Part shown: piece by piece, positions 9,531-64,000 of the stretch
Numbering within the stretch: the first letter of the stretch is position 1
How the letters are laid out: each line of letters starts with the position of its first letter
Origin: Alphaproteobacteria bacterium
Lineage (GTDB): Bacteria; Pseudomonadota; Alphaproteobacteria; Rs-D84
Reading direction: 5' to 3'
NCBI GenBank assembly: GCA_009783145.1
Contig: WRHR01000003.1
Span: forward strand, 23,019 to 87,018
Length of the DNA: 64,000 nucleotides
Position numbers and translations under genes: made by a program
The notes under the pieces: generated by a model
What the model saw: only the letters and a program-made list of their open reading frames with translations
Told to the model about the DNA's origin: nothing
Databases searched by the model: none

Positions 9531-9722
9531 CCTTGCTCGCAGAGTAAAGATTTTTCGGCTTTGCCGAAAAATCAGAGTAACGCTCGCTGCGCTCGCAGAG
9601 TAGGAGAGTAAGAGAGTATCTATAACTCCCTACTCTTCTACTCTCTTACTCTAGCAAACGCTGTGCGTTTGCGTCACTCTGCCGGCGAAGCCGGCGTTAC
9701 TCTGCGCGCTTCGCGCGCTACC
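9531..9722. repeat. Family A element, copy A2 (near-identical to A1)
   Basis: Same architecture and the same position relative to the downstream pseudopilin paralog. Confidence 0.85.
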
Positions 9723-15111: not shown

Positions 15112-15280
15112 GCGGGGTCGCGGTTCCCCTCCTGTGGAGGGGTGGATTGCGAGCGAAGCAAAGCAAGACGGGGTGGTTCTTGTAATGTGCGAGATTTTTC
15201 ACCCCACTCAAGGGGCAGGAAAACAACCACCCCCGCCGCGCGATAACGGCGCGATGCCCCTCCACAGGAGGGGAACACCT
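15112..15280. repeat. Family B palindromic element (ccctcctgtggagggg termini), intergenic copy B1
   Basis: Terminal IR cggttcccctcctgtggaggggtgg / cccctccacaggaggggaac; shares the internal gacggggtggttcNtgtaatgt block with B2. Confidence 0.8.
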
Positions 15281-22888: not shown

Positions 22889-24265
22889 TTATTTTCCCAA
22901 ACATAATTGCCCGAATACGGAATCGGCAACCTCCGATGCGCCGATGACGCCCAGAATCTGGCCTATATTGTCCGCCGCGCGGCGAATATGCTCGGAAAAC
23001 AAATCCATATTGGTCTTTTGTCCTTCAGCTTTTGCCAGTTCATCCGCAGCGGCTTGCAGATGCATGCGCGCGCGCTCATTAAGGGCGACATCGGACTGGG
23101 CGCCATCCAGACGGCTATGCACTTCCGCGCGAATTCGTTCCAACAGCTCTGGTATTCCTTCGCCGGTCAATGCCGAGACGCGAAACGCGAAACGCGAAAC
23201 GCGATTATTATTATCCAGCAAATCACATTTGTTTATGACGATTATTTCATTATCACGCGTTTCGCGTTTCGCGTTTCGCGTCTCGACCCTTATCACCAAA
23301 TCCGCCCTTTCAATTTCCTGGTTGGTTTTTTCAATCCCGATCTTTTCTATCGTATCTTGCGTCTCGCGCAAGCCGGCGGTATCCGCCAATCGCACAAGGT
23401 ACCCGTCTATATCGATTTCGGCCGACACCACGTCGCGCGTAGTGCCTGGGATTTCCGAAACTATCGCGCGCGATTCTCCAACCAAGCGATTGAACAGCGA
23501 CGATTTTCCGGCATTAACCGGCCCTATGATGGCTATATTGAAACCGCTGCGGATAGACCTGGCCGCGGCGCTGCGGGATAATGCTGCTGAAATTTCTTTA
23601 CCCAGGGCACGAGTGCGCGAGAGTATTGTCTCGCCGATATTCGCAGGAAGTTCTTCGGCCGGATAGTCCAGCATTGCGGCGGAATAGGCTGTGATTTCAA
23701 CCATTTGCAAGCGCCAGTTCTCATATACGGCACTGTCCGCGCCGGCGGCAGCGCGCAAAGCGCTTCGCCGCTGGGCATCAGTGCGCGAATCCAAAAGGGC
23801 CGCCAAGCCGTCGGCCTCTATCAAATCCATTTTGCCGTTATCGAAGGCGCGGCGGGCGAACTCGCCGGGATTCGCCAAGCGCGCCCCATACGCGCGCAGG
23901 GTCGCGAATAATTTTTCAATTACGGCCGCGGCGCCATGAACATGAAACTCAATAATATCTTCGCCGGTGAAACTGTGTGGGGCCTGGAAATAAATGGCAA
24001 TCGCGCGGTCAATCACATCGCTGCTTTTATCAACCAGGTCGGCGAGATACGCATGGCGGGGCAGCGGTTCCCCTCCTGTGGAGGGGTGGCTCGCGAATGA
24101 AATGAGCGAGACGGGGTGGTTCGTGTAATGTTCGCAGTTGGCTAAACCACCCCGGCCCTTCGGGCCACCCCTCCACAGGAGGGGAACCGCTGCCCCGCTG
24201 ACGCGCACGACCGCAACGCCCGCTTTTCCATGTCCCGAAGATAATGCGAAAATCGTATCGGTCAT
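22889..24265 (-). CDS. mnmE: tRNA modification GTPase MnmE, carrying two in-frame palindromic-element insertions
   Basis: FTGEDIIEFHVHG N-domain, G-domain GPVNAGKSSL, NKCDL, C-terminal CLGK. An extra 47-aa segment (VPLLWRGG...GGEPLP) is encoded by element B, and the RVETRNAKRETR/RVSRFAFRVS segments by element I. Confidence 0.88.
   Translation of the reverse strand: MTDTIFALSSGHGKAGVAVVRVSGAAVPLLWRGGPKGRGGLANCEHYTNHPVSLISFASHPSTGGEPLPRHAYLADLVDKSSDVIDRAIAIYFQAPHSFTGEDIIEFHVHGAAAVIEKLFATLRAYGARLANPGEFARRAFDNGKMDLIEADGLAALLDSRTDAQRRSALRAAAGADSAVYENWRLQMVEITAYSAAMLDYPAEELPANIGETILSRTRALGKEISAALSRSAAARSIRSGFNIAIIGPVNAGKSSLFNRLVGESRAIVSEIPGTTRDVVSAEIDIDGYLVRLADTAGLRETQDTIEKIGIEKTNQEIERADLVIRVETRNAKRETRDNEIIVINKCDLLDNNNRVSRFAFRVSALTGEGIPELLERIRAEVHSRLDGAQSDVALNERARMHLQAAADELAKAEGQKTNMDLFSEHIRRAADNIGQILGVIGASEVADSVFGQLCLGK
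23175..23275. repeat. Family I (gcgaaac)n palindrome, copy I1, inside mnmE G-domain coding region
   Basis: gagacgcgaaacgcgaaacgcgaaacgcg ... cgcgtttcgcgtttcgcgtttcgcgtctc. Confidence 0.8.
24057..24197. repeat. Family B element, copy B2, 141 bp in-frame inside mnmE
   Basis: ggggcagcggttcccctcctgtggaggggtgg ... ccacccctccacaggaggggaaccgctgcccc; 141 bp equals 47 codons. Confidence 0.85.
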
Positions 24266-27962: not shown

Positions 27963-28280
27963 ATGAAAGATATGAAAATGGACAAGGAGTGGCTTGGATA
28001 CAAAATATGGAAGCTGAAACAAAAACGGAACATATTGTTCCGCGCGTTCCTGATAAACTACGTAGTTATTTTGCTGGCTTGGCTGGTGTCGATGACGCCG
28101 TTTTATATGGGCTTGCTGATGCATTTCATGCCGGGCATTAACGCCATCGAGGCGAATATGTACCTGATGACCTTGTTCGGAATCTGGAAGATAGCGGGAG
28201 TGGTCCTGTTCCTGATACCGGCGTTGGCGATATGGTGGGAACAGTGCATGATGCAGAAATACTATGACATGAAGAAATAA
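27963..28280 (+). CDS. Small membrane protein, hypothetical
   Basis: RBS aaggaggg, start at MKDMKMDKEW, three predicted TM helices. Confidence 0.4.
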   Translation: MKDMKMDKEWLGYKIWKLKQKRNILFRAFLINYVVILLAWLVSMTPFYMGLLMHFMPGINAIEANMYLMTLFGIWKIAGVVLFLIPALAIWWEQCMMQKYYDMKK

Positions 28281-28302
28281 GAATCCGGCGAACGCCGGAT
28301 TC

Positions 28303-28656
28303 TTATTTAGTTTTATATGCGTCTTTTACCGATTGCCAGCATTCTTTGTATTCTTCAATTCTTTTCTCTGTATTCAATACACTGGTGGTCTGACGAATAC
28401 TTAATACGTTGTCTTTACGGGGGACGCCAAAACGAATACAAGCGCCGGCCCCTGAAAATGTTTCACAAACCTCACACATTGGCAGCGGCGTTAAATCCAA
28501 AGGATGCTGTGTATACATTTCACATTCTGTACGCATTCTGCAATTTTTACACCACATGGTGTCAGTGAAAACAGGAGGATTACTTTCAGCAGAATCATTA
28601 TCAATATGAAAATTTACACCGCATTCGGATAAATCATGCCTTGTCCAATTTGACAT
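28303..28656 (-). CDS. Cys-rich hypothetical protein
   Basis: CKNCRMRTEC...CEVCETF...GAC clusters; no family recognised. Confidence 0.3.
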   Translation of the reverse strand: MSNWTRHDLSECGVNFHIDNDSAESNPPVFTDTMWCKNCRMRTECEMYTQHPLDLTPLPMCEVCETFSGAGACIRFGVPRKDNVLSIRQTTSVLNTEKRIEEYKECWQSVKDAYKTK

Positions 28657-28722
28657 AACAGAGCCTTTAATGTCTTGTATCTCTCAGGCTCATAGTACCA
28701 TTACGCTGGCATTTGTCAAATG

Positions 28723-29109
28723 CTATTTCTTTACAGTTATCTTCCCAACCGCGTCATAGCCAAAGTACTTGTTAATCCGCGCACGGAATTCCTCTGTTCT
28801 GTATGATAATTCCATTGCAAACGCGGGCTGCACCGCTTTCAGCGTTATGTTGAATTTTGTAGGGGCGCATTTTTGCGCCCTTTTAATCGGTCGCTTTGCG
28901 ACCGACGGGGCACAAGAATGTGCCCCTACACTACGTATCCCTTGCAGCTTCGCCAAACGCGCCAAGTCCGCGCCTATGATTTCGTTCCACCGCGCGGCCA
29001 AGTCTGCATCAGACGCGCGCACGCCGAATATTTTCAGCAAGCCTCCGAACGCCCCGCCCAAGCTTTGCGGGCGCGAAGTTCGGAGTGAAAGATTAGGTTT
29101 TGCTTTCAT
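28723..29109 (-). CDS. DciA-like (DUF721) protein with in-frame palindromic insertion
   Basis: C-terminal LKAVQPAFAMELSYRTEEFRARINKYFGYDAVGKITV fits the DUF721/DciA family; the segment VGAHSCAPSVAKRPIKRAQKCAPT is encoded by hairpin element F. Confidence 0.5.
   Translation of the reverse strand: MKAKPNLSLRTSRPQSLGGAFGGLLKIFGVRASDADLAARWNEIIGADLARLAKLQGIRSVGAHSCAPSVAKRPIKRAQKCAPTKFNITLKAVQPAFAMELSYRTEEFRARINKYFGYDAVGKITVKK
28858..28930. repeat. Family F nested-hairpin element in-frame in dciA-like gene
   Basis: tgtaggggcgcatttttgcgccc..ggtcgctttgcgacc..ggggcacaagaatgtgcccctaca. Confidence 0.75.
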
Positions 29110-29165
29110 TTACGATTTACGATTTACGATTTAGGGAGTCAAATCTTAAATCGTAAATCTTAAAT
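29108..29165. repeat. Family J (acgattt)n palindrome with GGGAGT core, copy J1
   Basis: ttacgatttacgatttacgatttaGGGAGTcaaatcttaaatcgtaaatcttaaatt; abuts the dciA-like start codon and the mltA stop. Confidence 0.8.
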
Positions 29166-30241
29166 TATTTATATGGTTTCGGCATCAGGATATACATCTC
29201 GCCTTGGCTATGCTGGCCGTGGGCATAGCTATACGCCTCGTCCCCTGTGCCAAAGAATATATCCCCTCGTATCCAGCCTTTTATCGCGCCGCCCGTATCC
29301 TGGGCCACCATCAGCCTCTGGAACTTGCGCCCGTCCACCGACAGGTTAGTGTTCACATAAACCGGCAGGCCGACCGTATATATGCTGTCGTCCACCGCGA
29401 TGCTGCGGATTTTGGATAACGGAGTCCCGATTTTTCCAATCACGTCATGCGCGGTCGCAACCTGGAAATATACATACCGCGGGTTGTTGTATATGACTTC
29501 CTTTGCCAGCGCGGGATTCTTTCTAAGATGCGCCCAAACCGCCTCGCTGGAATAGCCGCCTTCCGGACGGATTCCGCGCTGTTTCAGTTGCTCTCCGATT
29601 GATTTGAACGGCAAGTCGTTGACCGCGGCAAAATTCAGCTTTACTTTAGTCCCGTCCTCCAGCTTCAGCATTCCGCTGCCTTGGATTTGGATATTTTGCA
29701 CATCGACTATGTTTGCCCAATAAAGAACTCTGCCTATCTTATTTTCTACGATGGTTTTCTTGTCCACGCCCTTAAAGCTCCGGCCTTCGAGGGGGACGCC
29801 CATCAGCGGCTCGTTGCACTGGGCGGTTTTCGTCCTGCACGCGGGTATTATGGGAGAATAGTATCCCGTATAGGTTCCCGCAGGCTTTCCGGCTTCGTCG
29901 TGGATTTTATACGGCTGAAAATGAGACTCGAACCAGTCGCGCGCGACGGCGGGACTTGCCGATTCCGACGGCATAAATTGGCATTTTTCTTCCAACAATT
30001 TGCGGTCCGGAATGACCTTTCCCTGATATTGGAGCTTTGCTTTGCAAGTATTCCTGAATGCCGCCAAAGCATAGCGGTGGTCGTCTTCGCGCCAGCCCGG
30101 CAACTGGGAATACGAGACTTTGTGAAGATTAGAAGGCTTGACGGAGTTATCGCCGGTCTTATAATCGCGCGACTCGGTCAAATCGCCGCATCCGGCCAGA
30201 AGTCCAAAAACTATAAATACCGGCAAATAACACTTTTTCAT
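29165..30241 (-). CDS. mltA: Membrane-bound lytic murein transglycosylase A
   Basis: Lipobox LLAGCG, MltA N- and 3D-domain motifs (YYSPIIPA, IAVDDSIY, GTGDEAY). Confidence 0.85.
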   Translation of the reverse strand: MKKCYLPVFIVFGLLAGCGDLTESRDYKTGDNSVKPSNLHKVSYSQLPGWREDDHRYALAAFRNTCKAKLQYQGKVIPDRKLLEEKCQFMPSESASPAVARDWFESHFQPYKIHDEAGKPAGTYTGYYSPIIPACRTKTAQCNEPLMGVPLEGRSFKGVDKKTIVENKIGRVLYWANIVDVQNIQIQGSGMLKLEDGTKVKLNFAAVNDLPFKSIGEQLKQRGIRPEGGYSSEAVWAHLRKNPALAKEVIYNNPRYVYFQVATAHDVIGKIGTPLSKIRSIAVDDSIYTVGLPVYVNTNLSVDGRKFQRLMVAQDTGGAIKGWIRGDIFFGTGDEAYSYAHGQHSQGEMYILMPKPYK

Positions 30242-31683: not shown

Positions 31684-31784
31684 ATGGCAAATGGCAAATG
31701 TAAAATGGCAAATGTAAGGTGATAAAGAGATAAACTGTGCTCTTACCTTCCACATTTTACATTTGCCATTTGCCATTTGCCATC
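31684..31784. repeat. Family C (caaatgg)n palindromic element, intergenic copy C1
   Basis: atggcaaatggcaaatgtaaaatggcaaatgtaagg ... ccttccacattttacatttgccatttgccatttgccat. Confidence 0.8.
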
Positions 31785-33410: not shown

Positions 33411-33440
33411 AAACGCGGGCAAAGCCCGCGTTTTTAATTA
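33410..33440 (+). terminator. Rho-independent terminator after acyl-CoA synthetase gene
   Basis: aaaaacgcgggcaaagcccgcgtttttaatt. Confidence 0.75.
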
Positions 33441-33563
33441 GAGTAGTAGAGTAAGAGAGTAAGAGAGTAAAAGAGTAAATAATATCTATAACTCTACTAC
33501 TCTCTTACTCTGCAAACGCAAAGCGTTTGCGTTACTCTGCGAGCGAAGCGAGCGCTACTCTCA
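33440..33563. repeat. Family A element, copy A4 (supplies tsaE C-terminus and stop)
   Basis: agagtagtagagtaagagagtaagagagtaaaagagtaaataatatctataactctactactctcttactctg plus gcaaacgcaaagcgtttgc and gcgagcgaagcgagcgc. Confidence 0.8.
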
Positions 33564-36004: not shown

Positions 36005-36066
36005 TTTAACTGAGAACTGAAAACTGAGAACTGAGAGCTTAGTTTTCAGCTTTCAGTTTTCAGTTG
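36005..36066. repeat. Family H (ctgaaaa)n palindrome, copy H1
   Basis: ttaactgagaactgaaaactgagaactgagagcttagttttcagctttcagttttcagtt; abuts the uvrB start codon. Confidence 0.8.
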
Positions 36067-43205: not shown

Positions 43206-43862
43206 TCATACCCCCTCTATCATATGGTTTTGCAGACCTTTCCATAAAACGACGTCGATATATCCGCGCGGAAGGCCGGTTTCGCGGACAAGGTGCGCGA
43301 ACATGGCGCCACATGCTGCTTTGACATCCGGGTCAAGTCTGCCATTATCTATTTTTGATTTTAATTCATCCGCGCCCGCAAAAGCAACGCCAAGTCGTTG
43401 AATCCAAATATCGTATTTTACAATGTCTTCGCCCAGATTTCGCGCAAGATGATTCGCCGTTATTTTTCCAATATGAGGCAAGGACGCCAAGTAAGCCAAT
43501 TTGGAATCCAAATCTGACAGTTGATAATACCAATCGCGGTATACGCCGCGATTCTGCCAGATTTTTAGAATCGCATTTATTTTGTTTTTATTGTTGAAGA
43601 TTTTTATCAGCGCGTCAAACTGCAGCTGGTCATTATCCGCAATATAATCCATTATCTTTTTATGAATTGCCTTGGCGGTCTTTTGGGAAAACCCGCCTGC
43701 AAGAATTACATAGATCGCCTCGCGCGCAAATTCATCTGCTGACAAAGGCGTCTTGTTCTTTAACCGTTCTTTTATAACATCGAACTTTTCAAGGTCGGAA
43801 TTTGCGCCGGCGTCTTGCAGCCGTTGTTCCAAATCAAAAAAGAATTCCCGCGATAGGTTCAT
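43206..43862 (-). CDS. HhH-motif protein, possible DNA glycosylase/repair protein
   Basis: LPHIGKITANHLARNLG helix-hairpin-helix; adjacent to and co-oriented with ung. Confidence 0.35.
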   Translation of the reverse strand: MNLSREFFFDLEQRLQDAGANSDLEKFDVIKERLKNKTPLSADEFAREAIYVILAGGFSQKTAKAIHKKIMDYIADNDQLQFDALIKIFNNKNKINAILKIWQNRGVYRDWYYQLSDLDSKLAYLASLPHIGKITANHLARNLGEDIVKYDIWIQRLGVAFAGADELKSKIDNGRLDPDVKAACGAMFAHLVRETGLPRGYIDVVLWKGLQNHMIEGV

Positions 43863-44107: not shown

Positions 44108-46684
<2,577 letters not shown>

Positions 46685-49405: not shown

Positions 49406-49468
49406 AATTAGCGATTAGCAATTAGCAATTATCAGGGAGTTTAATTGCTAATCGCTAATTGATAATTG
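49406..49468. repeat. Family G (aattagc)n palindrome with GGGAGT core, copy G1
   Basis: aattagcgattagcaattagcaattatcaGGGAGTttaattgctaatcgctaattgataattgctaatt. Confidence 0.8.
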
Positions 49469-49499
49469 CTAATTAAAAAACCGGCAAAGCGCGGATTTT

Positions 49500-50537: not shown

Positions 50538-50576
50538 GAATTTCGCGTATAAGATATCAAGTTTCGTTGCCAAAAC

Positions 50577-50737
50577 AATTAGCAATTAGCAATTAGCAAT
50601 TAGCAATTAGCAATTTTTTCATTACTTATGCTTATTACCAACCAACTAATTTTTCCTTTATTTGTTTTAAAGCAACCAACTTTCTCACAACCGCAATCTA
50701 AATAATTGCTAATTGCTAATTGCTAATTGCTAATTAA
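50577..50737. repeat. Family G (aattagc)5 ... (gctaatt)5 palindrome with about 90-bp spacer, copy G2
   Basis: Left arm 50577-50614 overlaps the GspF-like 5' end; right arm 50705-50737 overlaps the GspE-like stop; adjacent actcccggc (GGGAGT on the other strand). Confidence 0.8.
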
Positions 50738-52377
50738 TACACTCCCGGCTGGTCCAGTAGTCCCACCCAGCGTTCCAGCTCCTCAACGCCGATGATGCCT
50801 TTCAGCATCAGCTCTATCGCCGCCTCTTTCAACGTGCGCCCGTCCAGTTCTTCCAGCCAATATTTTACCGCATCCGCGGAATTCCCCGCAAGCGCCAGTT
50901 CTAGGAATCTATTGTCTGTGATGATAATCTCGCCCGCTTTTATGCGCCCTATGGTGCCCTTTTCCGCGCAGTACTTGCATCCGTCGCCGCGGAAGTAAGT
51001 CTGGCGCAGGCCTGTTTCTCCGAACGCTTCCAGCACGCGCTTGTACGCGGGATGATCGGGAAAATTAACCAGCATTTTTCTGCACTGCGGGCAAAGCTTG
51101 CGGAACAAGCGCATCGACACCAGCCCGCGCATCATGGTTTCGTCTTTCAGCTTGAACCCTTCCACGCCCATATCCAAAAGGCGGGTAAGCGCCGCCATTG
51201 CGGAATTGGCATGCAAGGTGGTCCAAACGCTGTGCCCCGACAATGCCCCCTTTACCGTCAATTGAGCCGCGCTTAAGGTGCGGATTTCGCCGACCATCAT
51301 CACATCCGGATCGCTGCGCAGGGCGGATTGCAAAGCTTCGGTGAATTTCTCTTCCCGCTGCTCTTCGTTGTTCGCATTAACGACTGGAATCTGATGGCTG
51401 CCGAAAATGCGCCTTTCCGCCGGGTCTTCGATCGTAATCAGATTGATTTCATAATCGCGCTCTTTCAGCATAAGCGACATATTCTGGAAAAGAGTCGTGG
51501 ACTTTCCGCTGCTGGTCGGACCCGCGACCACGATAAGGCCGGTCGGGAAAGACCGCATGCGCATCAAAAGATCGCGCTCGTACTCGCCGAATTCCTGCTC
51601 GGTCTTTATGGTCTCGGCCGGGTTGTCGTACAGCAGGCGCATCACCACATAGCGCGATCCGAACGCGATCGGATTGAACTGCATTCTAATGCCCATAATG
51701 CCGGCCGGAAGATACAGGTCCCGCGTGCCGCGCAAAGGAGTGCGCCCGTCTTTCTGCGCGCTCTGATACTCGTTCTGCGCATAGTTGGAATTGGACTGGT
51801 CGGCGGATGCGAATGCTGCGCGGACGAAAGACTCGCCCCATTGAGAGTTGTATTCCAACACGGTCTGCATGCTGCCGTCCATGCGGAAATAAACGGTGGT
51901 CTGGTCGGCGACCTCTATATGAATATCGGATACTTTCAGGCTTGCGGCGCGCGCGATTATATCAACGAAGTCCTTTTGCATCTGGTTATCGTAATCCAAG
52001 GGCGCGCGTGATGCGATGCCCGCGAACTTCGCGTCGTTAAATTTGTATATGCCGGAAATAAGGCCCAGATCGCTGTAAAAAGGCTCTTTGGCCGTGCGCT
52101 TTTCTTTTTTAAGCAGCTCCAGGAACGAAATCACCCGCCCGTCATAGCGGTGAGTGCGAGAAATGACGATTTCGCCGCCGGAAAAGTACGCGAGCAAGTT
52201 CTGCGTATCTCTTGCCACTTCCAGCGCGCCGCCATTCGCGGTCAGCAAGGCGTTTGTGTTTGAGAACAAATACTCGATGATTTCTTTTTGCGTCGACGCG
52301 CCGATATTATTCGGCACGCTTGGGGCCGCGCTGCGCGCGGGCGAAGGAGTATTTTCAAGATTCTTTCGTGCTGACAT
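50734..52377 (-). CDS. GspE/PilB-family secretion/assembly ATPase
   Basis: GPTSSGKSTTL Walker A, MVGEIR, TLHANSA, C-terminal CPQC..x24..CKYC zinc motif. Confidence 0.8.
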   Translation of the reverse strand: MSARKNLENTPSPARSAAPSVPNNIGASTQKEIIEYLFSNTNALLTANGGALEVARDTQNLLAYFSGGEIVISRTHRYDGRVISFLELLKKEKRTAKEPFYSDLGLISGIYKFNDAKFAGIASRAPLDYDNQMQKDFVDIIARAASLKVSDIHIEVADQTTVYFRMDGSMQTVLEYNSQWGESFVRAAFASADQSNSNYAQNEYQSAQKDGRTPLRGTRDLYLPAGIMGIRMQFNPIAFGSRYVVMRLLYDNPAETIKTEQEFGEYERDLLMRMRSFPTGLIVVAGPTSSGKSTTLFQNMSLMLKERDYEINLITIEDPAERRIFGSHQIPVVNANNEEQREEKFTEALQSALRSDPDVMMVGEIRTLSAAQLTVKGALSGHSVWTTLHANSAMAALTRLLDMGVEGFKLKDETMMRGLVSMRLFRKLCPQCRKMLVNFPDHPAYKRVLEAFGETGLRQTYFRGDGCKYCAEKGTIGRIKAGEIIITDNRFLELALAGNSADAVKYWLEELDGRTLKEAAIELMLKGIIGVEELERWVGLLDQPGVY

Positions 52378-52452
52378 TTACGATTTACGATTTGCGATTT
52401 ACGAATTACGATTTATGGGGAGTCAAATCGTAATTCGTAAATCGTAAATTTT
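52378..52452. repeat. Family J element, copy J2
   Basis: tttacgatttacgatttgcgatttacgaattacgatttatgGGGAGTcaaatcgtaattcgtaaatcgtaaatttt; lies between the GspE-like start and the PilP-like stop. Confidence 0.8.
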
Positions 52453-57133: not shown

Positions 57134-57202
57134 TTTAAACTGAGAGCTGAAAACTGAAAACTGAGAACCAGATTTCAGTTCTCAGTTTTCAGTTTTCAGT
57201 TT
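57134..57202. repeat. Family H element, copy H2
   Basis: aactgagagctgaaaactgaaaactgagaaccagatttcagttctcagttttcagttttcagtt; supplies the DUF374 gene stop codon and abuts the lpxK start. Confidence 0.8.
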
Positions 57203-57912
57203 TTTATTTCTCCTGGCTCTATCTTGGGCAACTTAAATTCAGCATCGGTATCTTGTAGCTGTTTTATCATAAATTTTTCAAGATCTTCACGTGCGGAATT
57301 AAAATTGTCTTTGGTTATGAACACCGGCTGACCCACATTGCAGATTATCTTTGAAAACGGCTTGGCGACCAAGTATCTGTCCCAACGCTTTTGAAACCAA
57401 GGACGCGAACTTGAATAACATACCGGGATGATCGGCGCGCCGGTCATGCGCGCGAAGTAAAGCGCGCCGTCGTTCAGGCGCATCAAAGGCCCCTTTGGGC
57501 CGTCGGGAGAGAGCGCAAGGATATAGCCTTCGTTAAGGCGCCGCACGCCTTGGCGCAGCGCGGATACGGCCCCGTCGCGACCGGTGGAGCCAAATATGGC
57601 GCGCAAACCGAACAAGCGCTGTAATTTCGCCATCAGGCGTCCATCCTTGTGGCGGGATGAAAGCGCGAATCCGCGAAATCCGTACCTGCGGACAATGGGG
57701 GAAAGCATCATGGATCGCCCATGCCAAAAGACGAATATGGCGGGCTTTTTGCGGTGTTCCAGGAAAACTTGTTCGCCATTGATTTTTTTTCTGGAAGTAA
57801 AATAAACGAGGTAAATCCCCAAAAACATAACGGAGGCCAAGACCCATTGCACTGGGGCGGCGCCAAACGCTTTTTTCCAAAATCTTTTCCAAACGTCTTT
57901 AAATTTCTTCAT
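57196..57912 (-). CDS. DUF374-family (lysophospholipid acyltransferase-like) lipid A-associated protein
   Basis: FVFWHGR, LSSRHKDGRL, ALSPDGPKGP motifs; start at MKKFKDVWK; upstream of lpxK. Confidence 0.6.
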   Translation of the reverse strand: MKKFKDVWKRFWKKAFGAAPVQWVLASVMFLGIYLVYFTSRKKINGEQVFLEHRKKPAIFVFWHGRSMMLSPIVRRYGFRGFALSSRHKDGRLMAKLQRLFGLRAIFGSTGRDGAVSALRQGVRRLNEGYILALSPDGPKGPLMRLNDGALYFARMTGAPIIPVCYSSSRPWFQKRWDRYLVAKPFSKIICNVGQPVFITKDNFNSAREDLEKFMIKQLQDTDAEFKLPKIEPGEIKN

Positions 57913-58536: not shown

Positions 58537-59062
58537 GAACTTGGTTGGGGCAGTTAGACAAGTTTCTAACTGACCAGTCTGATGAACTGATAGATTTCAT
58601 AAATCAGTATAATCACTTTATGGAACTGCTATCCATAGAAGAACCAGAACTATTTGCTCTATACGGCGGAAACATTGGTGTTGAAAAATAATTCATTACG
58701 ATTTAATCCGATATTCCGAATTCCATTAAATCCACATATTTGACCCACAGACCTTCAGGTTATGAGTCCGATTATCAACAGTTCAGCAACCGTTCTTAAA
58801 TCACTTATTGCTCTGCAAGTGTTAGTTTTCAACGGTCATTATCAACCATTAGTGGAATTGTTCTATAAACCATTCTGATAACCATTCTATCAAACCCTAT
58901 GTAAAAACAGATTGTAGTTTGTTGAACCATTCTTAAAAGTGTTTCAAAAGAGTTAATTAACTGGACTTTGTTATATGGTTCCGCCAGGGTTAAGGGGTTG
59001 ATGAAACGATTTATGAAAAAGGAGATTGCTATGAACTTTTATTATGCTGAAATGGTTCGCAT

Positions 59063-60037
59063 CTATTGACCTTCGGAACTAATCACCGTTTTCCATACAT
59101 CTCTTTCTTTCGGAGTCAGTAAAACACAGTCATAATGCAACCCTTTCGGAGCATAGTCATTTACGATATAAAGGTTATTGCTATTTCTCTTATGTGCAGT
59201 TGCAAGTTTGCTGGTTATAACATTAGATTTTGTCGTAAATTCAAACGAACTACCGTCCTCAAAATAGACTTTTTCATAATAAGGCAAATCCGAACAATTA
59301 GTTTTAAGATTTTTCTTTTCATTATAATTAAAGTGCTGGTATCCAAATTTATATACATTTAGTTTCCCCATCTTGATTTTTTTAGAGTCTTTATACCTAT
59401 AAGTTTTTTCATTACTATATGAACCAAATATATTTACTTCACAAGAATTTTTGGTGAATGAGACCAAATACTCAAACGGAAGTTTCTTTGCTATAACTGC
59501 TTCAAGTGCTTCACGAGACCAACCGCCCTTGTTTTTAACTTCCTGTATAAATCTATCAGTATCCCCCACCGCACAGAAAAATAGTTTCTGCTTGCCTTCT
59601 TCTTTATCAAAAAATGCCATTGAACTTTTCGCAATCTTCTCCATTTCCTTCTTTTTGCACAATTCTTCTATGGCATCCCTTTTCTTCGGAGAGTATGAAG
59701 CAAACTTCCGTTTGAAATTATCAACATCTATAAGCAGGTCTCGTGGGTCTGTTTCTACAAACCCAACATCCACATAATTAAAGTTTCTTTGGGAAGAACT
59801 AATATCCATTTTTCGTTGGAAGTCCCTTTTGGGTTCAAAACCTTGTGCGACACCGCAGGGTATATCCACACCCCAGTCTTTCATAGATTTTTTGGAAATC
59901 TTATCAACCTCGTCTGTAAATAGATTGATTCCTACCGGGATAAGAACCACCGCAGATACACCGCCAATAATTGCATATTTGACGACATTTAATAATCCCG
60001 ACCACAAGGTCTTTATAGAACCCAGCATTTGTTTCAT
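59063..60037 (-). CDS. Membrane-anchored hypothetical protein
   Basis: N-terminal TM (YAIIGGVSAVVLIPVGINLF); AT-rich; no family recognised. Confidence 0.4.
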   Translation of the reverse strand: MKQMLGSIKTLWSGLLNVVKYAIIGGVSAVVLIPVGINLFTDEVDKISKKSMKDWGVDIPCGVAQGFEPKRDFQRKMDISSSQRNFNYVDVGFVETDPRDLLIDVDNFKRKFASYSPKKRDAIEELCKKKEMEKIAKSSMAFFDKEEGKQKLFFCAVGDTDRFIQEVKNKGGWSREALEAVIAKKLPFEYLVSFTKNSCEVNIFGSYSNEKTYRYKDSKKIKMGKLNVYKFGYQHFNYNEKKNLKTNCSDLPYYEKVYFEDGSSFEFTTKSNVITSKLATAHKRNSNNLYIVNDYAPKGLHYDCVLLTPKERDVWKTVISSEGQ

Positions 60038-60061
60038 TTTGGTTTCCTTTGAATTCCGTTT

Positions 60062-60958
60062 TTAGAACATATTTTTCAGTCCATTAAAAACTTCAAGTTC
60101 TTGCTTATCGCTGACAAGTTTCCAGACTGTTGGTATATTTCTATGCCCATTGTCTTTAACCTGTTCTCGACTCATTCTGCAGGACTTATTCAATATGTCA
60201 TTTAATTGGTCAATAGACCACGGGTCTGTATATGCAGATTCCATTTCTACGATACATTCGCCCGTTTTTTGATTATAAATAGTCTGAACAAATGACCTTT
60301 TCTTGCCACGACCAAATGGACAAGTTGTATCCACTCTTCCATCGGCAGTTTTACCATTATATTCACAATCTCTCAAATTGGGTTGAACCATATTTCCAAA
60401 AGTGCATTGTGAATCTTCTATGTATCTGGTAGTAGTGGACTTTTTAGTTTTAATTAGCGAATAAACAGTTTTGTTGATTGTGCAAGAGTATTGTCCTGTT
60501 TCGTTAAAACTCACCTCCAAATATCGTGTTTCCGATTTGTCTTCAAATTTGTAAATTAAATTGAGGATTTCGGGGACTTTTTCGCAAACAATGTCTTTTC
60601 CTGAAGTTTTGTTTGTTGGCACCTTTTCTTCAAAATAAGTAGGTCTTGTGTGCTTTATTATCTGATAACAAACCTTTGCGGAGTTTTGCTCTTGTTTTGC
60701 ATTACCTTCAATTTGCGAGTTGTCGTTTTTTGCTTCTTCTATCTTCTTATGGCACTCCGAATCCGAAAGATATTTTGTTTTCTTCTTTTTCTTTATTTTG
60801 CAATATTTCTCTTTCAAATCTGGGTCAATTTGCAACTTTTCACTTATAGTCGTATCGGTTGTAGGTGTTGATGGGGCAAGTGACTTCTGGGATTTCTTCG
60901 GACTACCACCACAAGCGACAAGTGCCAGCAGTGCTATCAGGATTGTAAGTTTTTTCAT
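60062..60958 (-). CDS. Cys-rich lipoprotein, hypothetical
   Basis: MKKLTILIALLALVACGG lipobox, about 14 Cys, Lys-rich low-complexity region. Confidence 0.45.
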   Translation of the reverse strand: MKKLTILIALLALVACGGSPKKSQKSLAPSTPTTDTTISEKLQIDPDLKEKYCKIKKKKKTKYLSDSECHKKIEEAKNDNSQIEGNAKQEQNSAKVCYQIIKHTRPTYFEEKVPTNKTSGKDIVCEKVPEILNLIYKFEDKSETRYLEVSFNETGQYSCTINKTVYSLIKTKKSTTTRYIEDSQCTFGNMVQPNLRDCEYNGKTADGRVDTTCPFGRGKKRSFVQTIYNQKTGECIVEMESAYTDPWSIDQLNDILNKSCRMSREQVKDNGHRNIPTVWKLVSDKQELEVFNGLKNMF

Positions 60959-61415
60959 TTTTTATCCTTTTGGATTTTTGTGCAAAAACCACCCTTCCAA
61001 CAGAAAGGTGGTCCAGGTTTTCCAAATCATCAAATGAGTGATTCCGTTGCCTTCGGCAATGCCTTATAACAACGGTGCCTGGACCATAAGGAACAGGCGA
61101 TAACGGTGTGAAAAGCACCATTATGCAAAAAATCGGATAAACGATGCTTTCACACCGCATTTGACGGGTTTGGAAATCCCGGAACCAATTATCCCTAATT
61201 GATTCAACCTAAATCATACTTAAAAACCTTGGAAATATCAACCAGAAACCTTAAATAATTTTCAGTTTCAAAATACTTATTTTAGTCGGGACTTGTGGAA
61301 GTTTTTTTGTATAAAATCTACCTAGATTGGCATTTGTTGCAATTTTTAGATTGAATAATTTGTAAAGTTTATTGTAAGGTTAAATTATAAAGAACAAGAC
61401 AAAAAAGCAGAACGA

Positions 61416-62087
61416 ATGCGAGTAAAAGACGGTATTATTATTGCCAATGCAGCGGATAAAATAAAAGCAGAATTGATAGATTTTCTGCTTGATTGCCATG
61501 ACAATTTTGACCTCATTGCCAACGAGACCCCTTTTTTGCAAAGCGAGCGAATGGCGGATATGATTGCTATTCGCAATGGCATAACAATGGGGTTTGAGAT
61601 AAAAAGCAATACAGACGACTTGCGGACTCTTTCCCAGCAATTGAGTGATTATACAAGGGTGTTTAATGCGGTTTATCTGGTATTTTCTGCAAAGTTTGCT
61701 GGCAGTCCAGAAATTGAAAAATTGCCCAAGACTATCGGTCTTTTTACTGTTGATACCGACAATAATCTAAAATTTCGCCGCAAAGCGGCAACAAAGGTTA
61801 TACTGGATAAATCCGCGATGCTTTCCTTGTTATGGAGAAAGGATTTGGAGACTCTTGCTCCCAGCAAGAAGAAAGCGGACTTTGACGATTTACGAGATTA
61901 TGTGCTGAGAAACTGCCCAATAAAGACCATTCAAGAACAAATTATAAAATCACTGCAATCTCGCTATGGGAATGGATATAAGTTGATGATACACGAAAGG
62001 GGCGAGAAAACTACCATAGAAGACCTGTTTTACATTACAGGTCTAAAAAAGCACCAGATTGTCTTCGCAGATACAAGCATTGCATAG
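61416..62087 (+). CDS. PD-(D/E)xK nuclease-fold protein (sce7726/MmcB-like)
   Basis: ADMIAIRNGITMGFEIKS gives a D..x12..E-x-K arrangement; AT-rich island. Confidence 0.35.
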   Translation: MRVKDGIIIANAADKIKAELIDFLLDCHDNFDLIANETPFLQSERMADMIAIRNGITMGFEIKSNTDDLRTLSQQLSDYTRVFNAVYLVFSAKFAGSPEIEKLPKTIGLFTVDTDNNLKFRRKAATKVILDKSAMLSLLWRKDLETLAPSKKKADFDDLRDYVLRNCPIKTIQEQIIKSLQSRYGNGYKLMIHERGEKTTIEDLFYITGLKKHQIVFADTSIA

Positions 62088-63165
62088 TCATATATAGATT
62101 TGACCGCACAGCAATCCAATATGCTGGTGCTTTGCCTTCTGGGGCACCGTTTGCCTTTTCAGCAATTCGTCTGTCCCCCTCGGTTAAAAACTCAGTTATA
62201 GGTGCATATTCGGACGAACCAATAACCTGCTTTGCTAATCCTACATAATCCGAACTGGTATTTCGCCCATTCCCTCGTCTAAACCAGTATTTTATGGGTT
62301 GCTTTGTTCGTTGGTCTCTTTCAATATAATCTATCCTTGCATACCATCCGGCACCACCCATTTCATATCTTTTGGGATATATGGATGAGAAATCCCCGTG
62401 AAAGACTTTGCTTCCTAATTCGGTCTTTACACAATCAGAGACTTGATTTTCAGTAATATCAATACTGCCCGCAGTTTTGCTTATACTACTAACCGATGCA
62501 GGGAAACTTGAAGAAACAGGTATAAGTGCTTTTATATTTGAAATATCTATACCAGATAATCCGCTCTTAATTTCATTTTCCTTATAGTCCCGAACAAAGT
62601 CAAAATCAAGAATAACAAACAATTTGCCGTTGCCAATAATGTCAGTAATAAATTTGATAACCTGTGGCAAAGATGGTGCAAAAGCAGGCAATTTTACAGC
62701 AATGTAATCAAAATTAGCATTTAATACTTGTATTTGTGCTTGAACCTCTGTCATATGGGCAGCATTAAATTGAATGACAGGTATAACCTGCTTCTTGAAT
62801 TTATCGTTCTTTTGTAAGAAATCAGACCAAGATTGATACCCGTTTGACGGGTCTAATAATCCGCCACCTTTACTGCTAAGACCGTCATATTTCAATGAAG
62901 CATCGTCTGTTATATCCAGAATGAACCGCCTGTCGTCCATAAAATCTAATATTTTTTGGATTTTGTTGTATATATCGCCCTGTCTTCTTTTGCCCCGCAA
63001 ATTTTCGTCTTTACAATTTTTTGTATAGGTGTATCCCAACTCCCCTGTCATTTCAATTATAGGTAAAATGTTATCTTTGACTGTATCGTTCAGGGCATCA
63101 TAAGCATTCACCTCTGACGGGCGAGTTTTTAAGATTGGGAAATAGCAGTATCTTGGCATACTCAA
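62035..63165 (-). CDS. Hypothetical protein, partner of ImmA-like peptidase (possibly sce7725-like)
   Basis: 376-aa ORF, 4-nt overlap with the upstream ImmA/IrrE gene; convergent with and 3'-overlapping the PD-(D/E)xK gene. Confidence 0.35.
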   Translation of the reverse strand: MSMPRYCYFPILKTRPSEVNAYDALNDTVKDNILPIIEMTGELGYTYTKNCKDENLRGKRRQGDIYNKIQKILDFMDDRRFILDITDDASLKYDGLSSKGGGLLDPSNGYQSWSDFLQKNDKFKKQVIPVIQFNAAHMTEVQAQIQVLNANFDYIAVKLPAFAPSLPQVIKFITDIIGNGKLFVILDFDFVRDYKENEIKSGLSGIDISNIKALIPVSSSFPASVSSISKTAGSIDITENQVSDCVKTELGSKVFHGDFSSIYPKRYEMGGAGWYARIDYIERDQRTKQPIKYWFRRGNGRNTSSDYVGLAKQVIGSSEYAPITEFLTEGDRRIAEKANGAPEGKAPAYWIAVRSNLYMTMQCLYLRRQSGAFLDL

Positions 63166-63737
63166 TACTCCGATATTAGACCAAGTTTATAAGCACGATA
63201 GCGGACCGCCGGTGTGGATAAATTAAACTTGTCTGCCAGTTTCTTTACTGTATTCTCTCCCCTTTTAATACAATCGTTTACAATCGTTTCAGGCATCAAT
63301 AAGTTTGAAGCAAAATCATTTGCCTCCCGTTCATCTGGATTTGTATTCTCGTCCCTGAAAAATATCAGGTCGTGCTGAAATCTTCCATTTGCATATTTTT
63401 CGCGGTGTTTTACATAATGTCCTAATTCGTGAGCGATTGTAAATCTTTGTCGCTGTTCGCTTTCATATTGATTTATATAAATACACCACTGGTTATCTAT
63501 CTGTTCTAGAAAACCAGAAGCGGATTTACCCAAATCCTTTTTTATCAATTTAATACCAAATATCTTTTCAACAACACTGGCAATATCCAATGGGTCGGTT
63601 TTTATTTTGAGTTCTTTCGCTTTTGCCCAGATTTCAGAGACAGACATTGTTTGAGGTGTTTGTTTCTTTGCCACAGAACGGGAAGTGGCATTCCCGCCGG
63701 AGAGAAAGTTTTGCCAATTAGATAAGTCTGTTGCCAT
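63162..63737 (-). CDS. ImmA/IrrE-family metallo-endopeptidase
   Basis: HELGHYVKH HEXXH motif plus EREANDFASNLLMP downstream. Confidence 0.7.
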   Translation of the reverse strand: MATDLSNWQNFLSGGNATSRSVAKKQTPQTMSVSEIWAKAKELKIKTDPLDIASVVEKIFGIKLIKKDLGKSASGFLEQIDNQWCIYINQYESEQRQRFTIAHELGHYVKHREKYANGRFQHDLIFFRDENTNPDEREANDFASNLLMPETIVNDCIKRGENTVKKLADKFNLSTPAVRYRAYKLGLISEY

Positions 63738-63979
63738 TATCTCCCTCCTTTCTTTTTCGTGGTTGCTTTTTTCTTTGCTGCGGGTTTAGGTTTTATAGTC
63801 GCAGCAGCATCCTTCTGTATCTGCTCAATAATCTTATTTTTTGTTAGTTCATATTCTTGCGATATGAATCCACGGATTCGGGTTTCGTCTAATTCTTCTG
63901 CTACATAATCCGACAAGTTTGTTTTAAGATAATCCGCAACTTTCTTGTCAAAATATATGCCAAACCATTCGGATTGCAT
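63737..63979 (-). CDS. Small hypothetical protein with Lys/Ala/Pro-rich basic tail
   Basis: Start overlaps the ImmA stop (ATGA); C-terminal AAKKKATTKKKGGR tail. Confidence 0.3.
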   Translation of the reverse strand: MQSEWFGIYFDKKVADYLKTNLSDYVAEELDETRIRGFISQEYELTKNKIIEQIQKDAAATIKPKPAAKKKATTKKKGGR

Positions 63980-64000
63980 TTCTTCGTGAATGATTTTCCG

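Follow-up and report, generated by a model that had tools for sequence, protein, structure and literature searches.

A putative GTAG-type REPIN in frame within a dciA (DUF721) gene of an alphaproteobacterium

How a 73-nt nested palindrome came to lie within the reading frame of a small replication protein, and whether it serves any purpose there, are the questions raised by a locus of an Alphaproteobacteria bacterium (Rs-D84; assembly GCA_009783145.1, contig WRHR01000003.1, positions 23,019-87,018 of the forward strand). The whole of this 64-kb stretch was analysed and is referred to as the window; positions without a further label are counted within it. The palindrome, at 28858-28930, contains three inner hairpins and resides in an open reading frame (ORF) of the minus strand encoding a DciA protein. 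DciA is the ancestral helicase loader, and for the protein of the window the role of DnaB loader, in a genome lacking DnaC/DnaI, is putative, by family assignment. The answer that we consider probable is that a resident REPIN, i.e. an inverted pair of REP (repetitive extragenic palindrome) sequences of the type linked to REP-associated tyrosine transposases (RAYTs), inserted in the DNA for the turn of a beta-hairpin of DciA, was kept in frame and persists as a tolerated extension of the loop.

A first-pass annotation of the window had described the element as three hairpins nested in an outer inverted repeat, without recognising in it a pair of REPs. By re-reading the window, with the help of a repeat finder and of folding, its sequence (TGTAGGGGCGCATTTTTGCGCCC TTTTAA TCGGTCGCTTTGCGACCGA C GGGGCACAAGAATGTGCCCCTACA) and coordinates were found to be as given, and both the three hairpins and the outer repeat are present (table 1); only the middle hairpin had been drawn slightly short, its 3-nt loop being closed by a stem of 8 bp. 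The coding-strand RNA of the element is predicted to form one long hairpin with a minimum free energy of −50.2 kcal/mol, to be compared with −22.9 ± 3.2 kcal/mol for 200 dinucleotide-preserving shuffles, none of which was as good (z = −8.55). Each end of the element is a REP unit with GTAG, of the GT[AG]G type, unpaired at its terminus and with a perfect stem of 7 or 8 bp closed by a 4-nt loop, inside the 6-13 bp range given for REPs (PMC3733652). The left unit reads GTAG-GGGCGCA-TTTT-TGCGCCC on the plus strand and the right one GTAG-GGGCACA-TTCT-TGTGCCC on the minus strand, and with the 27-nt spacer the two inverted units are able to form a single long hairpin, as REPINs do. Because the GTAG-tagged, GC-rich stem-loop units are inverted, with the GTAG termini outside, the element is identified, on its sequence, as a REPIN, namely a head-to-head heterodimer of two GTAG-tagged REPs. 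The extragenic placement typical of REPs and REPINs is not found here, the element being wholly within the dciA ORF. At 28931-28937 (ctacgta on the plus strand, CGTAG-T-GTAGGGG on the coding strand) the head of the REPIN is directly adjoined by a further GTAG, which may be left over from the target, result from a partial duplication or be fortuitous. The middle hairpin was also considered as a REP of the CGTC type, in that, on the coding strand, CG precedes it and TC starts it; the TC is base-paired and the stem is devoid of features of the CGTC family, so that the likeness is taken as a coincidence.

The ORF matches the Pfam DciA family PF05258 (E 4e-10; 40.2 bits, cut-off 24), in agreement with the DUF721 assignment of the first-pass annotation. 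The best PDB matches retrieved by Foldseek with an AlphaFold2 model of the protein, built on 20 homologs, were the DciA structure 7ykm (TM 0.65 on the target, probability 1.00) and Vibrio cholerae DciA (8a3v), with Foldseek E-values of about 0.01 only, and a sequence search of the PDB with the DciA profile gave no DciA match. Profile and model together indicate a bona fide DciA/DUF721 protein with a predicted KH-like DciA fold. In the model the antiparallel strands 53-61 and 85-92 are joined by an unstructured loop of residues 62-84, with a pLDDT (per-residue confidence) of about 52 as opposed to 85-90 in the core, so that the insert is predicted to lengthen the turn of a beta-hairpin. The insert lies within the DUF721 match (residues 31-126, profile positions 19-89); the first-pass annotation had put it between the N-terminal part and the conserved DUF721 block. 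The element is read in frame as (S)VGAHSCAPSVAKRPIKRAQKCAPT, in the context ...GIRSVGAHSCAPSVAKRPIKRAQKCAPTKFNITLK..., and its translation in the ORF, SVGAHSCAPSVAKRPIKRAQKCAPTK, is the one written down at first; the frame used (GTA-GGG-GCA ... TGC-GCC-CCT-ACA) escapes the TAG within GTAG. In the alignment of the homologs no part of the family is less conserved than the beta-hairpin turn, and the invariant family residues are all kept in the window protein. Over 103 flanking codons the ratio of nonsynonymous to synonymous substitutions (dN/dS) with respect to an insert-free ortholog is 0.12 at a dS of 0.80, a value that indicates purifying selection on the rest of dciA.

That the segment is an insertion is well supported by comparison with orthologs, most of which are without it. 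The 180 homologs found in 5.8 billion proteins, nearly all of those listed carrying a precomputed PF05258 match, are nearly always 108-109 residues long, as compared with 128 residues in the window protein. Between the G(I/T)R and FNIT motifs the latter has 26 residues and the others about 6 (e.g. KTKDKK), and the distance between two conserved motifs has the canonical value of 49 residues in 89 of the 102 homologs in which it is measurable, as compared with 69 residues in the window protein. In the closest insert-free ortholog (locus L121), AAG ACG AAA GAT AAA is found where the window has AG followed by the 73-nt element, that is 5 codons as opposed to 25, with a net gain of 60 nt and 20 residues. 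A chimeric join inside dciA, generated by assembly or binning, might be suspected in view of the source, which is a metagenome-assembled genome (MAG), and of the tendency of palindromes to be misassembled. However, the 387-nt gene, insert included, is 100% identical in the Logan assemblies of the separate runs SRR6220664 and SRR5248970, so that an assembly artefact is excluded for practical purposes; an intact reading frame with conserved residues on both flanks also speaks against an artefact, the probability of which is regarded as negligible.

The REP family in relatives and in other genomes

The exact subfamily to which the element belongs, GTAGGGGCRCA-TTYT-TGYGCCC, was detected in 24 metagenome loci. 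Loci L142, L143, L145 and L148 are syntenic with parts of the window, with 65-84% amino acid identity over gyrB, uvrB, aspS, serS and the lpxC region, and come from relatives of its organism. In L145 the dimer is intergenic, upstream of serS. In L142 (6646-6712) it is in frame in dnaG (6446-8170, minus strand), the product of which has Zn-ribbon, DNAG_N and Toprim domains according to Pfam, and encodes VGAHSCAPESEDIGQGRKNAPLQ, the first eight residues being the same as in the dciA insert. In L148 (178-1113) the ortholog of the window gene at 43206-43862 is interrupted in frame by three segments, at least two of which are REP-encoded, adding 94 residues that are absent in the window copy. From these positions the REP subfamily appears to be resident in the lineage and dispersed at non-homologous sites in the relatives. 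Relatives of this uncultured clade occur in apparent termite-gut metagenomes.

The sequence class is much more widespread. Among 185,579 species representatives at least 119 loci match the pattern TGTAGGGGCRCA-N35-65-TGYGCCCCTACA, with about 0.2 expected by chance (own estimate), and the matches listed include Oscillospiraceae, Opitutaceae, Chloroflexota, Acidobacteriota, Abditibacteriota, Planctomycetota, Bacteroidota, cyanobacteria and others. The layout in all matches listed is GTAG with GGGCGCA-loop-TGCGCCC, a spacer and the inverted copy, the loops being genome-specific. The 12-nt REP head and stem, TGTAGGGGCGCA, is almost unchanged in at least ten phyla (L001-L119). Twenty of the 119 listed dimers have an open frame extending for 60 codons or more to both sides; no intragenic frequency was derived from them, since most of the ten largest of these frames are spurious high-GC ones or lie 5' of the real start. 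A full-text search of the literature for GTAGGGGCGCA returned chance primer matches only.

REPINs are non-autonomous mobile DNA, and their presumed mobilisation on single-stranded DNA is ascribed to RAYTs (or TnpA-REP, HUH enzymes of the IS200/IS605 type). RAYT-like ORFs at L111:1320-2171, L012:3291-3872 and L042:6630-7187, whose hosts are Anaerolineales, Ignavibacteriaceae and Ruminococcus MAGs, abut REPs of this class or are flanked by them, and for this reason the class is considered, from sequence comparisons, to be associated with RAYT-like genes in other genomes. The ORFs of L012, L042 and L111 are mutually homologous (27-41% identity), match the NCBIfam model REP_Tyr_transpos NF047646 with E-values of 2e-22, 7e-17 and 5e-16, just under the curated cut-off, and also match Pfam Y1_Tnp. 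They were retrieved with the regular expression MP[DN]HxH, derived from the supplementary RAYT alignment of PMC3733652, and a tblastn search with them added a partial RAYT-like match in L029, a few kb from the dimer of that locus. The RAYT-like ORF of L042 itself seems to contain an in-frame REP ('TGAHVGAPL').

One loop, several palindromes and the fate of the insert

The DciA loop is occupied by other palindromes in other lineages. L120 (protein P0003, 113 residues) carries there a lone GTAG REP, GTAGGGGCGGGGTCGGCCCGCCC, and another GTAG REP at 3339-3363, TGTAGGGGCGGATATTATCCGCCC, provides the TAG stop codon of its dciA. In L124 (P0017, 121 residues) the loop holds a different GTAG REP dimer, GGTAGGGACGCGCTGCC...GGCAGCGCGTCCCTACC, with a fold z of −10.1, and a further dimer of this family is in frame in tsaE (L124:3744-4274), immediately before the Walker A motif. 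In L125 (P0006, 132 residues) an inverted octamer-array hairpin, (GGACAAAA)n...(TTTTGTCC)n, is found at the loop (z −7.7). P0026, which is longer by 16 residues at the same loop, was not counted as having a palindromic insert, its palindrome being a weak one of 5-6 bp (z −1.3). A single loop of a 108-residue protein thus holds different palindromes, one of them a non-REP octamer array, in at least four lineages. The simplest reading is that palindromes insert often in this clade and that the DciA loop is the one place in so small a protein where an insertion survives selection; alternatively, the recurrent occupancy may reflect a target-site preference for the loop.

For the copy in the window the following sequence of events is envisaged. 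One REPIN copy, presumably mobilised by a RAYT of the lineage, would have landed in the DNA for the turn of the DciA beta-hairpin, where about 5 codons of a variable basic loop would have been exchanged for 25, in a frame that avoids the TAG of GTAG. The in-frame state would have been reached by trimming or by selection, and the copy would persist because the loop tolerates extra residues. The first-pass annotation had stated that an insertion at this position touches replication initiation, a consequence that is unproven. Because of the loop position, of the dN/dS of the flanking codons and of the other palindromes that relatives carry at the loop, the insert is instead seen as a tolerated passenger that would leave function unchanged, most likely neutral (we infer neutrality) or slightly deleterious, rather than an adaptation.

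Several observations weigh against this reconstruction. The length of the element is 73 nt, or 71 nt if measured from GTAG to CTAC, neither of which is a multiple of 3, and the net gain is 60 nt; a clean insertion therefore cannot explain the present state, and about 11-13 nt of target sequence would have had to be lost for the frame to be kept, unless the ancestral loop was shorter. The hairpins are near-perfect although the dS to the nearest insert-free relative is 0.8, which fits a young insertion but equally a selection that maintains the structure. With the residues that the spacer encodes, the loop remains basic (KRPIKRAQK, as compared with KTKDKK in orthologs), by chance or by selection. 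Finally, GGGCRCA-N2-10-TGYGCCC occurs in the window at two sites only, both being the REP units of the element (0.02 expected by chance); searches of the 64 kb by BLAST, with the 12-mer allowing 2 mismatches, and with the patterns GGGCRCA-N2-10-TGYGCCC and GTAGGGRC revealed no further member of the family, and no REP is present in about 6 kb past the end of the window (L129). Likewise, no RAYT-like ORF was detected in the window or in the contigs fetched from the relatives with HUH/Y regular expressions, with MP[DN]HxH or by tblastn. Since a second copy is lacking in the window and a RAYT in the window and in the contigs of the relatives, activity of the element in this genome is unproven, and the copy could be a relic.

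The solitary copy and its boundaries, unlike those of a clean insertion, are also what would be expected if the element had not been transposed at all, having been acquired by recombination with the dciA allele of a relative or formed locally by hairpin-templated repair, as seems to be the case for the heptamer arrays described below. The arrays in mnmE, which appear to overwrite coding sequence at constant length, imply that this lineage makes hairpins in non-classical ways, and the second GTAG abutting the head (CGTAG-T-GTAGGGG) would also agree with such an origin. However, in termini, stems and dimer architecture the element agrees with a widespread family linked to RAYT-like genes, the 12-nt head included, and its exact subfamily is scattered over non-homologous sites of relatives, as is characteristic of mobile families. 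A non-transpositional origin is thus judged very improbable.

The stability of the fold brings in a second alternative, in which a hairpin in the dciA mRNA, or a cruciform or single-stranded DNA hairpin, would tune the dosage of DciA through ribosome pausing, cleavage by RNase III/E or transcript stability, perhaps jointly with the heptamer-array hairpin that precedes the gene. Besides the about −50 kcal/mol of the structure and the presence of this second hairpin element in the mltA-dciA spacer, the perfection of the hairpins retained at a dS of 0.8 would be accounted for, and many REPs have been argued to be RNA elements (PMC3733652). On the other hand, a promoter and terminator scan found no such signal within the element, and an Rfam scan of 28000-30000 (E <= 1) gave nothing above threshold, with chance hairpin matches to miRNA and snoRNA models only. 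Relatives have unrelated sequences or nothing at this site, so that no conserved regulatory element exists there, and the same REP subfamily is found in unrelated genes and spacers. A cis-regulatory role is accordingly held to be unlikely.

At the protein level it may be supposed that the extended basic loop (VAKRPIKRAQK) has acquired a function, such as an additional contact with single-stranded DNA or DnaB. The loop is basic in orthologs and remains so with the insert, it is expanded in several lineages, and the DUF721 domain of Caulobacter DciA binds single-stranded DNA (PMC12547741). However, the residues flanking the DNA-binding Arg106 of the Caulobacter protein suggest a helix and not this loop (PMC12547741), the AlphaFold2 model gives the loop no structure, and most of the DciA family is without the insert. 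Furthermore, the inserted peptides of the different lineages (VGAH...CAPT here, KVGAGSARP and CRRVHNQIGHAGS) are unrelated and are set by the palindromic DNA. Such an exaptation is regarded as quite unlikely. For these three alternatives, positive support is limited to the stability of the hairpin and to the basic residues encoded by the spacer.

A broader interpretation would see in dciA one case of a lineage-wide process, in which unrelated classes of hairpin repeats (GTAG REP dimers, the 143-nt nested palindrome and the inverted tandem heptamer/octamer arrays described below) recur in the variable loops that essential genes encode (dciA, dnaG, tsaE, mnmE and the rluD-like gene), with the DciA beta-hairpin turn as a recurrent target, and are maintained for a function. 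The latter could consist in acting on single-stranded DNA at replication forks or in setting the dosage of replication proteins. There is, in our estimate, little chance that this holds. The reading that we prefer remains that of a REPIN tolerated as a passenger in the DciA turn.

Other hairpin repeats of the window

The window contains at least 14 hairpins formed by two inverted arrays of tandem heptamers (some octamers), with 3-6 copies per arm, mostly in short intergenic spacers (table 1). The units differ at almost every locus (AGAGCAC, AAAGAAT, CGCGAAA, ATTTACG, ATGGCAA, AACTGAG, AATTAGC, AGAGTAAG and others). Single arrays number about 5 per 10 kb in the window and in the relatives L120, L124, L125, L149 and L151, as compared with 0.5 per 10 kb in L126. 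The gap between mltA and dciA is filled by one of the hairpins; the two genes abut without a gap in L126, and an array with another unit (AACTAAA) is present at the orthologous spot in L120. On the other side of dciA, a Cys-rich ORF of 117 residues without a Pfam match (28303-28656, minus strand) is found between dciA and ruvC; it occupies the same place in L125 and in L122/L123, and in L126 dciA adjoins ruvC directly.

Arrays are also found within genes, in mnmE and in a rluD-like gene, where protein length is hardly altered with respect to the ortholog (ETRNAKRETRD as compared with QSAECEVQNLDKN), and they seem to have replaced variable coding sequence by overwriting it, not by insertion. 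We know of no mechanism by which heptamer arrays would do so. Direct TAACTGA heptamer repeats of Beggiatoaceae and cyanobacteria (PMC4679880) are a partial parallel only, and both the arrays and the 143-nt palindrome look less well explained by the literature found.

The 143-nt nested palindrome in mnmE folds at −113 kcal/mol (z −11) and replaces about 18 residues of the L126 MnmE ortholog with about 44. With a second, diverged copy in the window and related copies in L148/L143, L109, L140 and L124 (399-421, just upstream of the dciA of that locus), it is a second family of repeats in the clade resembling MITEs (small transposable elements with inverted repeats). At the end of the window, positions ~59000-64000, together with L129:1-5975, resemble a mobile island (M78 peptidase domain, 'Beta_protein', a phage P4 cII-like gene, a resolvase), and neither heptamer arrays nor REPs were found in this stretch.

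Table 1. Position of the element, of its parts and of the other hairpin repeats in the window.
Feature	Position	Strand	Description
Outer inverted repeat	28858-28880 and 28908-28930		23-nt arms, 87% complementary, 27 nt apart (repeat finder)
Left REP unit	28858-28880	+	T-GTAG head (28859-28862), stem GGGCGCA, loop TTTT, stem TGCGCCC
Right REP unit	28908-28930	−	inverted; T-GTAG (28929-28926), then GGGGCACA, loop TTCT, TGTGCCCC
Inner hairpin 1	28863-28880		GGGCGCA/TTTT/TGCGCCC; perfect 7 bp stem, 4-nt loop
Inner hairpin 2 (spacer hairpin)	28887-28905		TCGGTCGC/TTT/GCGACCGA; perfect 8 bp stem, 3-nt loop; among the loci fetched, found only in the same-species contigs L122 and L123
Inner hairpin 3	28907-28926		GGGGCACA/AGAA/TGTGCCCC; perfect 8 bp stem, 4-nt loop
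dciA (DUF721)	28723-29109	−	128 aa, uninterrupted, protein MCL1891958.1; REPIN at codons about 60-84
mltA-dciA spacer hairpin	29106-29167		inverted heptamer arrays (ATTTACG)n ... (CGTAAAT-like)n; fills the 55-nt stop-to-start gap
Array hairpin	5478-5595 (in rluD-like gene, see below)		
Array hairpin	6146-6273		
Array hairpin	8159-8231		
Array hairpin	9597-9652		
Array hairpin	23174-23285 (in mnmE, see below)		
Array hairpin	29108-29165 (mltA-dciA spacer hairpin, see above)		
Array hairpin	31684-31783		
Array hairpin	33440-33511		
Array hairpin	36008-36065		
Array hairpin	46506-46683		
Array hairpin	49406-49474		
Array hairpin	50576-50735		
Array hairpin	52376-52449		
Array hairpin	57137-57203		
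Arrays in mnmE (22889-24265)	23174-23204 and 23256-23285	− (gene)	flank the NKCD G4 motif
Arrays in rluD-like gene (4745-5719)	5478-5504 and 5570-5595	− (gene)	flank 'KVKAGDNIEVIIPE' of the pseudouridine synthase
143-nt nested palindrome	24056-24198		in frame in the mnmE TrmE_N domain; 38-nt arms, 97% complementary
Second, diverged copy of the 143-nt palindrome	15112-15276		intergenic, after bipA/typA

Comparison with known systems

The GTAG REP/REPIN/RAYT system (Nunvar 2010, PMC2817692; Bertels & Rainey 2011, PMC3116915; Di Nocera 2013, PMC3733652; Corneloup 2021, PMC8266576) provides the closest match. The terminal GTAG followed by a GC-rich stem-loop of 7-8 bp, the inverted units with GTAG outside ('HH dimer') and the size of about 71-73 nt, corresponding to one of the two sizes common among REPINs of Pseudomonas fluorescens SBW25 (PMC3116915), are all shared, as is the heterodimer with a small stem-loop in its spacer described in PMC3733652, and in other genomes RAYT-like genes are found beside REPs of this sequence class. 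The differences are the intragenic position of the dciA copy, its being the sole one in 64 kb and the lack of a RAYT in the lineage sequence searched. According to PMC3733652, GTAG REPs are mainly from Gammaproteobacteria, Alphaproteobacteria having mostly CGTC REPs.

Both GTAG and CGTC REPs are known inside ORFs, where intragenic dimers encode 20-30 residues, from Opitutus terrae, Thioalkalivibrio, recB of Xanthomonas and Rickettsia conorii, and many of the hosts are genes of replication and repair (uvrA/B, recB, dnaE, ligase) and of RNA/tRNA modification (PMC3733652). As in those cases, the dimer of the window is wholly within an ORF and, because GTA-GGG-GCx is read in frame, the peptides start with VGA.... 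In Xanthomonas recB different REPs are found at about the same site, and GTAG often provides a TAG stop codon (PMC3733652), as it does for the dciA of L120. In-frame intragenic GTAG REP dimers, often in replication and repair genes, are thus already known (PMC3733652). On the other hand, DciA is not among the hosts named in the available part of PMC3733652, and here at least four lineages have different palindromes at one loop. What is new is modest, namely DciA and DnaG as hosts, the GTAG family in an alphaproteobacterial lineage and the recurrent occupancy of a loop by unrelated palindromes. DciA, and the DnaG primase in a relative, join the replication and repair proteins already listed as 'decorated' by in-frame REP dimers, and GTAG REPs of one widespread sequence class are seen to live in a little-known alphaproteobacterial lineage. 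In practical terms, the beta-hairpin turn of DUF721 is marked as a natural permissive insertion site, useful for tagging or engineering of DciA, and in annotation the extra 20 residues should be read as repeat-encoded and not as a new domain; by itself the finding does not change the knowledge of replication initiation.

Small, non-autonomous palindromic elements with occasional in-frame fusions are also found among bacterial MITEs in genes (ERIC, BOX, Correia/NEMIS and cyanobacterial ones; PMC10969869). These differ in having the terminal inverted repeats of DDE-type insertion sequences and target-site duplications, as opposed to GTAG-hairpin ends and no evident duplication here. The classic alphaproteobacterial precedent is that of the Rickettsia palindromic elements (RPEs; Ogata et al. 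2000, cited through PMC10969869 and PMC3733652), which, like the elements discussed here, are hairpin repeats in frame in housekeeping genes, at permissive positions, with several families per lineage. Elements of the RPE-1 type, with which the comparison is by description only, differ in being about 100-150 bp long, as opposed to 73 nt here, with a conserved peptide of their own. RPE-4 and RPE-6 are REPs of the CGTC type and the element in dciA is of the GTAG type, so that the likeness is one of behaviour, namely that of alphaproteobacterial palindromes in frame within housekeeping proteins at positions that tolerate them.

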